From the NCBI RefSeq assembly GCF_003334815.1, contig NZ_QOWO01000038.1: a stretch of 34,633 bases of DNA; one strand, 5' to 3'. The stretch is from Escherichia coli. GTDB lineage: Bacteria > Pseudomonadota > Gammaproteobacteria > Enterobacterales > Enterobacteriaceae. Below are positions 10,545 through 20,000 of the stretch, piece after piece. Position 1 is the first letter of the stretch. Each line of letters opens with the position of its first letter. The notes under the pieces are model-generated. The model searched no databases, was not told the DNA's origin, and saw only the letters and a list, made by a program, of their open reading frames with translations. Position numbers and translations under genes: made by a program.

Positions 10545-10592
10545 CTAACAACGCATCAGGCATTCACGCGCCTGACGCGTCATCCGGCAATG
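10545..10592 (-). repeat. REP-like palindromic element between convergent ddpF and osmC
   Basis: CGCATCAGGC ... GCCTGACGCG ... CATCCGGCA motifs resemble REP consensus fragments; exact boundaries uncertain. Confidence 0.35.
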
Positions 10593-13811: not shown

Positions 13812-14822
13812 ATGAAGGCTGCAGTTGTTACGAAGGATCATCATGTTGACGTTACGTATAAAACACTGCGCTCACTGAAACATGGCGAAGCCCTGCTGAA
13901 AATGGAGTGTTGTGGTGTATGTCATACCGATCTTCATGTTAAGAATGGCGATTTTGGTGACAAAACCGGCGTAATTCTGGGCCATGAAGGCATCGGTGTG
14001 GTGGCAGAAGTGGGTCCTGGTGTCACCTCATTAAAACCAGGCGATCGTGCCAGCGTGGCGTGGTTCTACGAAGGATGCGGTCATTGCGAATACTGTAACA
14101 GTGGTAACGAAACGCTCTGCCGTTCAGTTAAAAATGCCGGATACAGCGTTGATGGCGGGATGGCGGAAGAGTGCATCGTGGTCGCCGATTACGCGGTAAA
14201 AGTGCCAGATGGTCTGGACTCGGCGGCGGCCAGCAGCATTACCTGTGCGGGAGTCACCACCTACAAAGCCGTTAAGCTGTCAAAAATTCGTCCAGGGCAG
14301 TGGATTGCTATCTACGGTCTTGGCGGTCTGGGTAACCTCGCCCTGCAATACGCGAAGAATGTCTTTAACGCCAAAGTGATCGCCATTGATGTCAATGATG
14401 AGCAGTTAAAACTGGCAACCGAAATGGGCGCAGATTTAGCGATTAACTCACACACCGAAGACGCCGCCAAAATTGTGCAGGAGAAAACTGGTGGCGCTCA
14501 CGCTGCGGTGGTAACAGCGGTAGCTAAAGCTGCGTTTAACTCGGCAGTTGATGCTGTCCGTGCAGGCGGTCGTGTTGTGGCTGTCGGTCTACCGCCGGAG
14601 TCTATGAGCCTGGATATCCCACGTCTTGTGCTGGATGGTATTGAAGTGGTCGGTTCGCTGGTCGGCACGCGCCAGGATTTAACTGAAGCCTTCCAGTTTG
14701 CCGCCGAAGGTAAAGTGGTGCCGAAAGTCGCCCTGCGTCCGTTAGCGGACATCAACACCATCTTTACTGAGATGGAAGAAGGCAAAATCCGTGGCCGCAT
14801 GGTGATTGATTTCCGTCACTAA
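13812..14822 (+). CDS. adhP: Zinc-dependent alcohol dehydrogenase (propanol-preferring)
   Basis: ORF-track frame 13782-14822; start placed at ATG 13812, directly after AAGGAGG ([12 protein letters not shown]...), 336 aa. Zinc-ligand motifs ([13 protein letters not shown]) present. Confidence 0.93.
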
Positions 14823-14831
14823 GAGGCCTTT

Positions 14832-14859
14832 GCTGCGACTGCCATGTTCGGGTCGCAGC
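14832..14859 (+). other. Hairpin after adhP (GCTGCGAC / GTCGCAGC, 12-nt loop) with no following T-tract
   Basis: Read directly; without a U-tract it may be an RNA-stability element rather than an efficient terminator. Confidence 0.3.
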
Positions 14860-14967
14860 ATCGCACACTCTCCAACATGAAATGGCTAAATGGATTATTG
14901 TTGCGTAGGAAGGAACAATAATGATAGTGTTCCCAGTGAAGGAACGCTACTGAGAGTAAAGACACTA

Positions 14968-15252
14968 ATGAAAATGGCCAATCATCCCCGCCCGGGGGAC
15001 ATTATTCAGGAATCACTGGACGAACTTAATGTCAGCCTGCGCGAGTTTGCCAGAGCAATGGAAATTGCTCCCTCAACGGCAAGCCGATTGCTGACAGGAA
15101 AAGCAGCTTTGACGCCAGAAATGGCGATTAAACTTTCCGTGGTGATCGGCAGTTCGCCGCAAATGTGGCTGAATCTGCAAAACGCCTGGAGTCTGGCAGA
15201 GGCAGAAAAAACAGTGGATGTGTCGCGATTACGCCGTCTGGTTACGCAATAA
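14968..15252 (+). CDS. yddM: HigA-family antitoxin-like HTH (Xre-type) DNA-binding protein
   Basis: ORF-track frame 14890-15252; start placed at ATG 14968 ([17 protein letters not shown]...), 94 aa. Small HTH protein typical of HigA/VapI antitoxins; recognised as YddM. Confidence 0.8.
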
Positions 15253-15254
15253 AA

Positions 15255-15280
15255 AAATGGCACTTTATAAAGCGCCATTT
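15255..15280. terminator. Near-perfect palindrome AAATGGCACTTTA|TAAAGCGCCATTT; candidate bidirectional intrinsic terminator after yddM
   Basis: Begins 3 nt after the yddM stop; A-run before and T-run after the stem allow function on either strand. Confidence 0.55.
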
Positions 15281-15304
15281 AGAACTGATGACAAACGCAA
15301 CATT

Positions 15305-15410
15305 GCCTGATGCGCTACGCTTATCAGGCCTACACGTTCACTGCAATCTATTGGATTTGAAGGGTTTTCATGCCGGATAAGGCGTTCACGCCGCATCCGG
15401 CATGAACAAA
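15305..15410. repeat. BIME: two REP elements in inverted orientation
   Basis: GCCTGATGCGCTACGCTTATCAGGCCTAC (15305-15333) and TGCCGGATAAGGCGTTCACGCCGCATCCGGCA (15371-15402) match the REP consensus families. Confidence 0.75.
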
Positions 15411-15431
15411 GCCTACGTTGTCTACAATATG

Positions 15432-15459
15432 AAAATGGCGCCTTTTACAGCGCCATTTT
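15432..15459 (-). terminator. Rho-independent terminator after fdnI (bidirectional-type hairpin)
   Basis: 10-bp stem AAAATGGCGC / GCGCCATTTT with 8-nt loop, 22 nt past the fdnI stop; the A/T runs are part of the stem arms. Confidence 0.6.
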
Positions 15460-15480
15460 CAGCTTAAAGTTCAAAAGAGA

Positions 15481-16134
15481 TTATATCCCTTCTTCACTCT
15501 CTTTTTTCGCTTCTGCCTTCTCGATTTCACGATACCAGCGCGGATGGTGTTTCTTCGCCCAGCGACGACTTACCTTCCCTTCGATCATCCCTTTAATCGA
15601 TCCTTTCACCCAAAATGCCATATACATATGGATCAGGATGGCGTGGATCAGGATGATACCCGCAGCCGCGTGGATCAGCAGGCTGTAGCGAACAACCTGC
15701 ATCGGGAAGTACTGCGCAAAGTACGGACGCCAGATAATCACCCCGGTCACCAGCAGCACGAAAATCATGCTCATGATCGACCAGAACATCATCTTTTGCC
15801 CGGCGTTGTACTTACCGACATCCGCCACTTTATGCTCATTGCCTTTCAATACTTCGACAATGTTCAACAGCCACGGAATATCTTTCTTATCCGGGATGTT
15901 GTGATGCACAAAACGCACAAACATAAACATCAGTGCGACGAAAATCGCAATGCCGAAGAACGGGTGCAAAATGCGTCCCATCTGCGGCGTACCGAAGGTT
16001 TGCGTCAGCCATTGCAGCGTCGGGAAGAAGAACGAAATCCCGGACAGCGCCACCAGGAAGAAGCAAATCACCACGGTCCAGTGACAGGCGCGATCAATAA
16101 ATTTGGTGCGCACAATCATTTTCGACTTACTCAT
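15481..16134 (-). CDS. fdnI: Formate dehydrogenase-N gamma subunit (cytochrome b556)
   Basis: ORF-track frame 15481-16176; start placed at ATG 16134 ([20 protein letters not shown]...), 217 aa; overlaps the fdnH 3' end by 8 nt. Confidence 0.9.
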
Positions 16135-17023: not shown

Positions 17024-20000
17024 TTACGCCTTCTCGATGTTGACTAAGAACGCTTTATATTCCGGCGTTTGCGAGTTTGCATCACCGACATTCGGCGTCA
17101 GAGTGTTAGCGATATAACCTTTACGCGCGACACCCTCAAAGCCCCAGTGGATTGGAATACCCACCGTTTCAACCTGCTGACCATTTACATTCAGCGGTTT
17201 CAGACGACGCGTTACCACAGCCACCGCGCGGATAAAGCCACGCTTGCTGGAGACAGTGACACGATCGCCATTATTAATGCCTTTCGCCGCCGCCAGCGTT
17301 TCGCTGATTTCCACAAACTGTTCCGGCTGAGCAATTGCGTTGAGCAATGCGTGCTTGGTCCAGGTGTGGAAGTGCTCGGTCAGACGATAGGTCGTACCCA
17401 CATACGGGAACTGCTCTTTTTTACCCATCCGCAGCGCGTCTTGTTCATACAGACGAACAACCGGGTTAGACACCACGTTCGGATGCAGCGGGTTAGTGCC
17501 CAGCGGCGTTTCAATCGGCTCGTAGTGTTCCGGGAACGGACCTTCCGCCATTTTGTTGATGGCAAACAGGCGTCCCATCCCTTCCGGCTGCATGATAAAC
17601 GGCCCGGTTGGCGTACCCGGTGCGGCATTGCCGAAGTCAGGAATATCGTTACCCGTCCACTTGCTGCCGTTCCACTGGATCAGCATCCGTTTCGGATCCC
17701 ACGGTTTACCGTTGATATCCGCCGAAGCACGGTTGTACAGCACGCGACGGTTGAGCGGCCACGCCCAGGCCCATCCCAGCGTATTCCCCAGACCGGACGG
17801 GTCGGAGTTATCGCGGTTAGCCATCTGGTTGCCCTGCTCTGTCCAGCTACCGGTGTAGATCCAGCAAGAAGATGCGGTTGTACCGTCATCACGCAGATGC
17901 GCAAAGCTACTCAGCAACTGACCTTTCTTCGCAATAAGCACGCCATTAGCGTCATAGAGATCTTCCAGCGCGTAGCCGTTGTTCTCTTTAGCCACTTCGT
18001 CAGATTGCGGTTCGTGCGGCTGCTTGTAGTTCCAGCTCATCTTCATCAGCGGTTCTACGCCTTTACCACCTTCGGACTGGTACAGCTCGCGCAGATGATG
18101 GTAGATACCCGCCAGAATTTCACCGTCGTTACGCGCTTCGCCCGGCGCGTCCTGACCTTTCCAGTGCCACTGCAACCAGCGACCGGAGTTAGCGATAGAA
18201 CCATCTTCTTCAGCAAAGCAGGTCGAAGGCAGACGGAATACTTCAGTCTGAATAGACGCCGGATCGACATCGTTCGACTCACCGTGGTTCTGCCAGAAGG
18301 TAGAGGTTTCAGTCACCAGCGGATCGATAACCACCATGTACTTCAGCTTGCTCAGGCAGCTCACCACTTTGTTTTTGTCCGGGAAGGACGCAACCGGGTT
18401 AAAGCCCTGGCAGAAATAACCGGTGACTTTGCCTTCATCCATCATGTTGAAATACTTGATGACGTCGTAGGTCTGGTCCCACTTCGGCAGCCAGTCATAG
18501 CCCCAGTTGTTCTCTTTCTGCGCGGCATCGCCATAGAAAGATTTCATCAGGCTAACGAAGAACTTCGGATAGTTGCTCCAGTAGTTCACCTGATCAGCCA
18601 GCGTCGCTTTCGGCGTGTTCGCTTCCAGATACGACTGCAAATCAACCTGTTTTTCTGACGGCAGCGTCAGATAACCTGGCAGGCTGGTAGAGAGCAGGCC
18701 TAAGTCAGTCAAGCCCTGAATGTTGGAGTGACCACGCAATGCGTTCACGCCGCCACCGGCCATACCCATGTTACCGAGCAGCAACTGGATCATCGCCATA
18801 GTACGGATGTTCTGCGCACCCACAGTGTGCTGCGTCCAGCCCAGCGCGTACAGGAAGGTGGTTGTGCGATCCGGTGCGCTGGTGGAGGCCAGCACTTCAC
18901 ACACTTTCAGGAAGTCGGCTTTTGGCGTACCGCAGATGTTTTCAACGACGTCCGGCGTGTAGCGGGAAACGTGCTCTTTCAGCAGGTTCCACACACAGCG
19001 CGGATGAGTCAGTGTTTCATCGCGTTTCGCATAGCCGTTTTCATCGAACTGATAGTTCCAGGACGATTTATCGTATTGACGTTTTTCAGCGTCGTAGCCG
19101 CTGAACAGACCGTCTTCGAAAGCAAAATCATCACGCACCAGCAGGCTGGCGTTGGTGTAATGCTTAACGTATTCGGCGTTGATTTTGTTGTTTTCGATCA
19201 GGTAGCGCAAAACGCCAGACAGGAACGTAATGTCCGTACCGGAACGAATAGGCGCGTAAATATCCGCCACAGAAGCGGTACGCGTAAAACGGGGATCGAC
19301 AACGATCAAGGTTGCGTCGTTGTTGTTTTTCGCTTCCATCGCCCAGCGGAAACCGACGGGATGCGCTTCAGCAGCGTTACCGCCCATCACCATCACGACG
19401 TTAGCGTTTTTGATATCCACCCAGTGGTTGGTCATCGCACCGCGACCAAATGTTGGAGCAAGACTTGCTACCGTTGGTCCGTGTCAGACGCGCGCCTGGT
19501 TGTCTACCGCCAGCATCCCGAGGGAGCGGGCAAATTTCTGGGTCAGCATCCCGGTTTCGTTGCTGGCACCGGAGGCACACAGCATACCGGTAGAAAGCCA
19601 ACGGTTTACCGTTACGCCCTGCTCGTTCTTTTCAATAAAGTTAGCGTCACGGTCAGCTTTCATCAGCTTCGCAATACGGGAGAATGCTTCTTCCCAGCTA
19701 ATGCGCTGCCATTTGTCAGAACCTGGCGCACGATATTCCGGGTAGCGCAGACGGTTTTCACTGTTGACGTAATCCAGCAAACCGGCCCCTTTCGGGCACA
19801 GCGCACCACGGCTTACCGGATGATCCGGGTCACCTTCAATGTGATAAATCGCTTCTCTGGCGTTTTTTGCGCCATCACCCAGGCTATACATCAATAGCCC
19901 GCAACCTACGGAACAGTATGTGCAGGTGTTACGGATCTCTTTAGCGCGTAATAATTTGTAGTTTCGCGCCTGAGCCAGTGCTTGCTTCGGGGCAAAGCCC

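Follow-up and report, generated by a model that had tools for sequence, protein, structure and literature searches.

Paired terminator hairpins around a BIME-1 element between yddM and fdnI of Escherichia coli

Among the repetitive extragenic palindromes (REPs) of Escherichia coli, the BIME-1 elements (RIP/RIB) combine one Y and one Z1 REP around a long L linker that often carries a site for integration host factor (IHF); they are about 140 bp long and are described as single-copy and as present or absent among isolates (PMC3333891, PMC1187871). The mechanism by which REPs and BIMEs spread has been called unknown (PMC3333891; 2026 preprint), and REPs, said to lack transposon signatures, reportedly "do not display MITE signatures" (PMC3184786), MITE standing for miniature inverted-repeat transposable element. 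Here we analyze a stretch of 34,633 nt of E. coli DNA (contig NZ_QOWO01000038.1 of assembly GCF_003334815.1), hereafter called the window, in which a complete BIME-1 lies in the gap between the convergent genes yddM and fdnI, bracketed by two near-identical hairpins that we call HP1 and HP2. The pair probably arose when an ancestral terminator hairpin, common to fdnGHI and yddM, was duplicated upon the insertion of the BIME-1. That BIME-1 is in general a MITE-like insertion targeting intrinsic-terminator hairpins, of which it would duplicate the entire palindrome whatever its sequence (17-27 nt in clear cases), is a more tentative proposal, to which we would give somewhat less than even chances.

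The element between yddM and fdnI has the inverted Y and Z1 REPs, the long L linker, the IHF-site-like core, the length (about 140-150 bp) and the position at the 3' ends of transcription units that are known for BIME-1. It also agrees with the description of BIME-1 as single-copy and present or absent among strains insofar as the window is concerned, but K-12 constitutes an exception, having two copies in tandem that are separated by a terminator hairpin. Bidirectional intrinsic terminators of E. coli, within many of which REPs have been reported when the genes are convergent (2026 preprint), offer a second comparison: The allele of our locus that has no BIME-1 likewise consists of an A-tract, a GC-rich stem-loop and a T-tract common to yddM and fdnI, whereas in the window the same terminator is split into two copies, each with one tract only. 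MITEs such as Correia/NEMIS and ERIC are likewise short and non-coding, with terminal inverted repeats, direct repeats of the target and filled/empty polymorphism, and the internal IHF site of Correia is comparable to the IHF-like site of BIME-1; however, their target duplications have a fixed length of 2-10 bp, in contrast with the whole palindromes of variable length that accompany BIME-1. Finally, REP325/naRNA4 (yjdM-yjdN) likewise has tandem REP units in a 3' untranslated region (UTR), with truncated transcripts and a role as partial terminator and stabiliser, but its six-unit array has no interleaved intrinsic-terminator hairpins, unlike yddM/fdnI. The local parts are therefore of known kinds: a terminator that is intrinsic and in part bidirectional, a BIME-1, and a candidate small RNA (sRNA) that varies among strains. 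The accessible literature on BIME-1, outside which key papers of the 1990s lie, contains neither the terminal inverted repeats nor the duplication of a target hairpin, so that an earlier description is possible. Bachellier et al. in 1997 are said to have reported "excisions of a whole BIME-1".

The hairpin pair and the element that it encloses

The yddM/fdnI gap (15253-15480) is 228 nt long, between the stop codons of yddM (15250-15252) and fdnI (15481-15483), of which the former, TAA, is also the start of an A7 tract preceding HP1. HP1 is a palindrome of 13+13 nt with one mismatch between its arms, AAATGGCACTTTA and TAAAGCGCCATTT, while the full stem of HP2 (15430-15461) pairs perfectly over 12 bp (15430-15441 with 15450-15461; arms TGAAAATGGCGC and GCGCCATTTTCA) around a loop of 8 nt. 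Their 26-nt cores are identical at 22 positions, and the hairpin regions form a direct repeat of 34 nt with 82% identity and a spacing of 178 nt; nowhere else in the 34.6-kb window do direct repeats of 20 nt or more lie within 600 nt of each other. Local alignment of the two regions gives a score of 38, compared with 14.4 +/- 2.2 for 2000 shuffles, and the exact hairpin motif has 0.00 expected occurrences by chance (100 shuffles of the window). The similarity between the two sides ends at the hairpin, since the outer flanks score like shuffled sequence; a duplication reaching into the 3' end of yddM or into the flank proximal to fdnI was rejected on this ground. The CAATA that is common to both sides belongs to the end of BIME-1 itself (family consensus CAATCTGA). 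Folding of both strands bears out the two structures, with energies of -10.2 (plus) and -14.9 (minus) kcal/mol for HP1 and of -18.7 (plus) and -22.1 (minus) kcal/mol for HP2, all four combinations of hairpin and strand folding better than shuffles (z from -3.1 to -5.6). Open reading frames (ORFs) of 43 and 71 aa in the gap are either derived from the REPs or out-of-frame overlaps. The original prediction, which was made from the sequence of the window alone, had recognized this near-identical pair around two REPs of opposite orientation, and in this it was right; of its details, the left arm of HP1 is GGCAC, not the GGCGC that was implied, and the second hairpin exists but extends beyond the 15432-15459 assigned to it.

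The segment between the hairpins is the mobile or repeated unit, a complete BIME-1. Its two REPs, at 15305-15333 (GCCTGATGCG...CAGGC(CTAC)) and at 15372-15401 (GCCGGATAAGG...CATCCGGC), are mutually inverted, and the inverted repeats, the naRNA4 model and the alignment of copies agree in showing one Y and one Z1 REP. In a search for other copies, conducted on plasmid records of which many are really chromosomal fragments, the segment from 15283/84 to 15431-33 matches other loci at 80-85%, including fepA-entD, the regions downstream of cueO and of dppA, and others. The alignment defines a family of about 150 nt with the consensus GAGACTGATGACAAACGCAAAACTGCC - Y REP - TGCAATATATTGAATTTGCA - Z1 REP - GAACAACGCGCACTTTGTCAACAATCTGA, the homology of which stops exactly where the hairpin copies start; with nhmmer, model positions 2-153 align to the other copies and the match in the window is full-length. 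The ends of the consensus, AGACTGATGACAAA and TTTGTCAACAATCT, are terminal inverted repeats matched at 13 of 15 positions, as in MITE-like elements, and the consensus as a whole is identical to its own reverse complement at 112 of 153 positions. The linker, too, aligns with the family, even if its putative IHF site (TGCAATCTATTGGATTTGAA) shows two extra deviations in the IHF core. At gathering threshold no Rfam family was found in the gap; there are just sub-threshold matches on the REPs and the linker, to naRNA4 (single REPs only, 35.7 bits, below the threshold of 59.5) and to ES036 (30.9 bits, below 37.6). Other REPs of the window, at about 10549-10588 and at 32560-32589, are not full-length BIME-1 copies according to the profile search, and no direct repeats of 20 nt or more flank them.

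Empty and filled alleles, here and at other BIME-1 sites

One hairpin copy plus BIME-1 forms a unit of 178 bp that occurs once in the window and twice in K-12 MG1655. Among 5,426 complete E. coli genomes, a query of 1,011 bp across the locus finds alleles of 1,011 bp (the form of the window), of 1,189 bp (+178, as in K-12 MG1655) and of 833 bp (-178). The empty allele has a gap of 49-50 nt with a single hairpin, CAATAAAAAAATGGCGCTTCTTAAAGCGCCATTTTCAGC; the allele with one unit has a gap of 227-228 nt, in which 151/152 nt separate HP1 from HP2; the allele with two units, present in K-12 MG1655 and EC24, has a gap of 406 nt with three hairpins and two intervening segments, its units being identical at 175 of 178 positions. 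A three-unit allele suspected in EC24 from a match in "3 places" was rejected on reading the gap. The difference of 178 nt equals the 151/152 nt of the element plus the 26/27 nt of the hairpin, with a one-base ambiguity due to an A that is common to the element end and the repeat; the order HP1 - BIME-1 - HP2, with 178 = 152 + 26, thus has the geometry of a target-site duplication. Empty alleles account for about 44-46% of the genomes, one-unit alleles for about 36% and two-unit alleles, including K-12, for about 18%. The share of filled alleles (about 54-56%) derives from a right-junction query that is complete in 2,939 genomes and a BIME-1-flank query that matches 3,065. The two-unit genomes, about 970 records among which K-12 laboratory strains are over-represented, were extrapolated from single-piece matches to the middle junction in 19 of 60 evenly spaced rows, an estimate replacing an initial count of 2,016 (at least 80% coverage) that was inflated by joined pieces.

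Less common alleles differ in the hairpins themselves. The two copies of O157 are identical at 27 of 27 positions. H1827/12 (L137; gap of 194 nt) has lost HP2 by a deletion of 34 nt that joins CAATATGAAA to GTTCAAAAG, and the E. coli B-derived B-RalR (H144) gives an identical BLAST row (188-nt span), as judged from the match row alone; MSB1_4I (L139; gap of 200 nt) is without the right arm of HP1 and the left outer motif of BIME-1, and H1827/12 and MSB1_4I could be used as natural hairpin knock-outs. In the B2-type strains Nissle 1917, A24 and AVS0096 (L138, L132, L133), HP2 is preceded by CTACAATAAAAAAATGGCGCC instead of CTACAATATGAAAATGGCGCC. This variant (CAATAAAAAAATGG) equals the end of yddM preceding HP1 and provides HP2 with a U7 tail in fdnI-sense RNA; it probably arose by gene conversion between the hairpin copies. 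In the empty alleles of NRZ14408 and 28Eco12, an IS200 (tnpA, IS200/IS605 family) lies between the stop codon of yddM and the 5' foot of the hairpin, in the order CAATAAA, IS200, ...CACAAAAAAATGGCGC (L003 664-1425; L135 1-449), which suggests that an insertion sequence with a Y1 transposase and BIME-1 are both attracted to the same foot.

Beyond E. coli, the orthologous site of Escherichia albertii is filled as well; its Z REP has decayed, and its gap measures 216 nt. A single hairpin follows fdnI in an outgroup with 94% FdnI identity (AATGGCGCTAC-ATCG-GTAGCGCCATTTTTTT) and in Citrobacter koseri (AAAAGCGCTAC-...-GTAGCGCTTTT), and both outgroups share with the empty allele of E. coli a long U-tract on the fdnI strand. 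In evolutionary terms, we infer from these sequences that the ancestral state was one hairpin, the terminator of fdnGHI, and that the filled form is derived, because the duplicated palindrome abuts a complete element and the empty sites have one copy. C. koseri (L129 2657-2881) lacks adhP and yddM, its malic-enzyme gene (a homologue of maeA) converging directly on fdnI, and has a REP pair adjoining the fdnI terminator hairpin; REPs have thus been acquired beside the fdnI terminator in another genus too.

The same signature is found at other BIME-1 sites. A metagenome scan with the pattern of the BIME-1 left end gave at least 120 contigs (1.04 Mb in total), in which a profile search located 126 full-length copies, corresponding to 30 alleles at 18 distinct sites. 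The flanks of 35 nt on each side were compared with a null of left and right flanks taken from unrelated sites (n=842, mean 5.0, 99th percentile 8.5, maximum 12). A flanking direct repeat above the 99th percentile of the null is present in 14 alleles at 10 of the 18 sites, with scores of 9-27; at all 10 it ends 0-4 nt from the last base before the element, and at 8 it begins at the first base after the element. The repeated units are palindromes specific for each site, of about 9-27 aligned nt, for example GGCCGGATGGTATTACCCACCCGGCCT (twice, perfect), AGGGCCGC..GCGGCCCTT, AAGGAATACGCAGA.., AGCGGGCCAG..CTGACCCGCTC, ACCGCCGG..CCGGCGGTT and AGCCGC..GCGGCTT, and at these sites the upstream A-tract stays with the left copy and the downstream T-tract with the right one. 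A hairpin foot lies 0-4 nt from an element end at 17 of the 18 sites, with fepA-entD as the sole exception. When empty alleles were predicted by subtracting the element and one repeat, exact single matches of 130 nt were retrieved at arcC/yqeB and pitA/uspB, where the filled state adds 173-180 nt; filled alleles consequently differ by the element plus one extra hairpin copy at all three sites tested (yddM/fdnI, arcC/yqeB and pitA/uspB). Repeats abutting the element and empty sites with a single copy are features of MITEs, for which the length of the repeats, variable and in the clear cases 17-27 nt, is atypical. At another BIME-1 site some contigs (L159) have both hairpin copies (AGCCGCAACCGCGGCTT, element, AGCCGCACATGCGGCTT), while others (L150, L163, L220) are without the left copy (cagtaatt, element), indicating that one duplicated hairpin can be lost after insertion.

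Gene context, termination and the C0362 transcript

Table 1. Position of genes, hairpins and BIME-1 parts in the window
Feature	Coordinates	Strand	Description	Basis
yddM	14968..15252	+	94-aa HigA-family antitoxin	ORF and RefSeq annotation of identical sequence
fdnI	15481..16134	-	formate dehydrogenase-N gamma subunit, last gene of fdnGHI	ORF and RefSeq annotation
HP1	15255..15280	.	left copy of duplicated terminator palindrome, AAATGGCACTTTATAAAGCGCCATTT	
HP2	15433..15458	.	right copy of duplicated palindrome, AAATGGCGCCTTTTACAGCGCCATTT	
178-bp unit	15255..15432	.	one hairpin copy + BIME-1; 0, 1 or 2 copies by genome	
BIME-1 (RIP/RIB)	15281..15432	+	full length, 151-152 nt	nhmmer full-length match and alignment with other copies
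BIME-1 left outer motif	15281-15303			
Y REP of BIME-1	15304-15333		...CAGGCCTAC	
L linker of BIME-1	15334-15370		with IHF-site-like TGCAATCTATTGGATTTGAA	
Z1 REP of BIME-1	15371-15402			
BIME-1 right outer motif	15403-15432		ends CAATATGA; family consensus CAATCTGA	
Window equivalent of C0362	15264..15471	-	fdnI-sense gap transcript, ~208 nt vs 386 nt in K-12	supplement sequence mapped

The gene order around the gap is maeA, adhP and yddM on the plus strand, converging on fdnI, fdnH and fdnG on the minus strand (table 1). Inside fdnG, Rfam recognizes a SECIS_3 selenocysteine insertion element (19431-19489, minus strand; 84.3 bits against a threshold of 63) that coincides with the in-frame UGA breaking the fdnG frame, the upstream extension of the 803-aa ORF stopping at 19435. 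In the window (upstream stretch 14823-14967), as in K-12, yddM is an orphan antitoxin; directly 5' of it, with a one-base overlap, other E. coli strains, among them MS1050, Nissle 1917 and MSB1_4I, carry a gene for a 92-aa RelE/ParE (HigB-like) toxin, as does E. albertii, and in AR_0081 this gene is frameshifted (loci compared: L006 328-606, L138, L139, L004 329-606). The homology of the window to the toxin-bearing strains starts just 5 nt before the start codon of yddM.

With its upstream A7 tract, HP1 is a canonical intrinsic terminator on the minus, or fdnI-sense, strand, where the stem is followed by UUUUUUUAUUG (U7); the terminator scan flags it, on this strand, as the sole terminator-like site of the gap (11 pairs, then TTTTTTTATTG). 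On the plus strand its stem contains an A.C mismatch and its tail is just U3 (UUUAGAAC). The minus-strand tail of HP2 is UUUUCAUAUUG and its plus-strand tail UUUUCAGCUU, the latter retaining the original downstream T4 tract. Hence, the GC-rich stem-loop of a terminator is present throughout, while a full U-tract accompanies HP1 on the minus strand only. In every allele the fdnI-sense hairpin RNA is more stable than that of the opposite strand, by 1.4 to 7.3 kcal/mol. On this model, fdnGHI transcripts would first reach HP2, acting as a partial terminator, and those reading through would carry BIME-1 and end at HP1; yddM transcripts would scarcely be stopped by HP1.

Published RNA data bear on the yddM direction. 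In DirectRNA-seq with and without bicyclomycin (PMC7815308), the yddM strand has a Rho-dependent region at 1551885, a position antisense to fdnI and 107 nt within it; the reads upstream/downstream of this position were 71/10 in the absence of bicyclomycin and 89/116 in its presence (supplementary file 2 of PMC7815308). Insulation in the yddM direction appears, therefore, to rely largely on Rho and not on the hairpins. REPs reportedly promote Rho-dependent termination and stabilise upstream mRNA, and between convergent genes they correlate with higher expression of both (2026 preprint). What the original prediction envisaged, namely bidirectional terminators insulating both transcription units, needs to be qualified accordingly: The hairpins are terminator-like, but they are not two equivalent bidirectional terminators, HP1 having kept the A7 and HP2 the T4, and in the yddM direction they provide insufficient insulation when Rho is inhibited, transcription then entering antisense fdnI. 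Term-seq also shows an abundant RNA 3' end within the initial 31 nt of yddM, at MG1655 1552652 (minus strand), which corresponds to about position 14998 of the window (supplementary files 1 and 3 of PMC7815308); it sits at a hairpin, CCCCGCCCGGGGG, and points to transcripts being terminated prematurely or processed near the start of yddM.

The candidate sRNA that the original prediction mentioned near fdnI and yddM, C0362, is indeed annotated in this gap in K-12; the NC_000913.3 record, in the version examined, has neither C0362 nor any REP as an annotated feature. The C0362 sequence chosen for overexpression begins with AACTTTAAGC on the fdnI strand, 10 nt past the stop codon of fdnI (PMC4606813 supplement). 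C0362 is known to vary among strains (PMC3318445). The window has the same locus on the same strand but holds only one of its two repeat units, whereby its version would be about 208 nt long instead of 386 nt. Upon overexpression in the published work, bands of about 200 and 230 nt were seen instead of 386 nt, a discrepancy that the authors left open (PMC4606813). The U-tract of the middle hairpin of K-12 corresponds to nt 218-225 of the C0362 RNA, and termination at this internal hairpin would explain the species of about 230 nt.

Origin of the hairpin pair and rival explanations

How did a single terminator become a pair enclosing a BIME-1? The ancestor would have had one hairpin, CAATAAAAAAATGGCGC-loop-GCGCCATTTTCAGC, between convergent yddM and fdnI, serving chiefly fdnGHI, as an intrinsic terminator with a U7 tail, and secondarily yddM, as a weak one. 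A BIME-1 of 151-152 nt would then have inserted at the foot of this hairpin, leaving the whole palindrome of 26-27 nt on both sides. The bidirectional terminator would thereby have been split, HP1 retaining the A7 and being strong for fdnI-sense RNA only, HP2 retaining the T4. Consequently, transcripts of each gene would cross the near hairpin and BIME-1 before meeting the copy that has their original U-tract, which would place the REPs in the 3' UTRs. Subsequently, the hairpin copies may have served as homology for unequal exchange, producing the two-unit array of K-12, and deletion back to one copy would also be possible; BIME-1 can thus be amplified in tandem through hairpins, a process that is not in the accessible literature (key papers of the 1990s lying outside it). 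As to the mechanism, we favour staggered cuts, one per strand, at the two feet of the palindrome extruded as a hairpin or cruciform, with subsequent fill-in; the same product would be obtained by copy-choice, the template being left at one foot and re-entered at the other. Since the duplicated segment always covers the entire palindrome, regardless of how long it is and how it reads, the breaks seem to be positioned by structure.

The resemblance of the two hairpins might have other causes. The hairpin AAAATGGCGC-loop-GCGCCATTTT could itself be a mobile or dispersed structured module with two copies here, as the original prediction considered in view of their near identity, and a scan for the stem motif (AAATGGCGC-N4-12-GCGCCATTT) in the genomes of 100,044 species does give at least 120 matching loci across bacteria, four of them in E. 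albertii. Among the matches listed, however, the 9+9-nt stem is all that is held in common, loops and flanks being unrelated, which characterizes the stem as a generic terminator palindrome (A-tract, GC stem, T-tract); the sole homologous match listed is the E. albertii orthologue. In E. coli, examined in its own collection, the median number of places matched by a 70-nt query that includes HP2 is one per genome, namely this locus (5,409 genomes), and copies with the same loop and flanks were found at unrelated loci neither in these genomes nor among the matches listed. Since the hairpins flanking other BIME-1 sites are entirely different and site-specific, we consider a mobile hairpin extremely unlikely: The module is duplicated, as had been suggested, but not mobile. 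Convergent genes often have one terminator each, and the two hairpins could accordingly be independent terminators of yddM and fdnI, alike by convergence or gene conversion, with the REP pair merely lying in between. Gene conversion does occur, as the equality of HP1 and HP2 in O157 and the acquisition by the B2 HP2 of CAATAAAAAAA from the yddM end testify. Yet a single hairpin serves both genes in empty alleles and outgroups, the spacing of the copies is exactly that of element plus hairpin, HP1 is poorly suited to terminate yddM with its A.C mismatch and U3 tail, and abutting duplications of unrelated hairpins occur at 10 of 18 other BIME-1 sites, two of them with exact empty sites; this explanation is very unlikely.

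It is also very improbable that the gap encodes a genuine trans-acting sRNA gene, C0362, of which the hairpins would be terminators or structural elements. Even if C0362 is listed as a REP-containing sRNA, its function being undescribed (PMC12306157), and its RNA is detectable on overexpression, the evidence for an independent gene, that is its own promoter and a defined conserved transcript, is not found. A scan of both strands at 14700-15800, covering the gap, shows no sigma-70-like site; the 386-nt form exists only with the duplicated unit, and many strains have a shortened locus or none at all; repeats of BIME-1 and of the terminator make up the RNA, which starts just past fdnI as a read-through 3' UTR would; upon overexpression neither motility nor fimbriae were reported to change, with biofilm at 78 +/- 16% of the vector control. 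C0362 is thus regarded as read-through RNA from the fdnI 3' UTR, given that the gap has neither a promoter-like site nor an Rfam family at threshold. A more serious contender, though still unlikely, is local tandem duplication without transposition, for instance by replication slippage at the palindrome, with BIME-1 acquired separately or through template switching to another BIME-1. Palindromes are hot spots for slippage. Transposases do not typically duplicate as much as 17-27 nt of target, and the Y1 enzymes of IS200/IS605 type, to which the REP-associated transposase is related, leave the target unduplicated (PMC3333891). Against separate events stands the coincidence, to the base, of repeat and element boundaries at the clearest independent sites, whereby duplication and acquisition of the element would be one event or mechanistically coupled; copy-choice predicts the same product and is left standing by this boundary evidence.

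The proposal that the terminator was duplicated by insertion of BIME-1 must also face several observations that weigh against it. Eight of the 18 other BIME-1 sites have no scoreable duplication. The filled form of E. albertii implies that the insertion is old or was exchanged between species, and the empty alleles of today, instead of being ancestral, could in principle have reverted from filled ones through deletion between the repeats. The empty-allele loop, TTCTTAA, is unlike those of HP1 and HP2, so that there is no simple relation of parent and product; on the other hand, not being a simple chimera of the two, it argues weakly for ancestral retention. Three stem substitutions yield G.U pairs in fdnI-sense RNA but mismatches in RNA of the opposite strand, and they are too few for significance (p about 0.125). 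The bicyclomycin data indicate that the hairpins terminate poorly in the yddM direction when Rho is inhibited. Expression of fdnGHI is induced anaerobically with nitrate and is expected to be poor in the aerobic conditions of Term-seq. The aerobic Term-seq supplements (PMC7815308, PMC12207403), a check that the original prediction had named, contain no 3' ends for the 3' regions of fdnI, yddM or C0362, and the TERMITe supplements list none of these genes.

In conclusion, the local biology is ordinary and largely annotated, and the interest of the locus lies in the general signature of hairpin duplication. The polymorphism of the unit would explain the strain variability of C0362 and its bands of about 200-230 nt instead of 386 nt, while the natural alleles with zero, one or two units, without HP2 or with half of HP1 form a series for studying the effects of terminators and REPs on the expression of fdnGHI and yddM. 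They also carry a warning: Duplicated terminators beside REPs are insertion scars, not designed insulators. Insertion at a hairpin foot, duplication of the whole palindrome, exact empty alleles and terminal inverted repeats together constrain any mechanism for the spread of BIME-1. If the proposal is true, either cut-and-fill or copy-choice would explain why RIP/RIB elements prefer the 3' ends of transcription units, and how a bidirectional terminator becomes two half-terminators with REPs inside both 3' UTRs.

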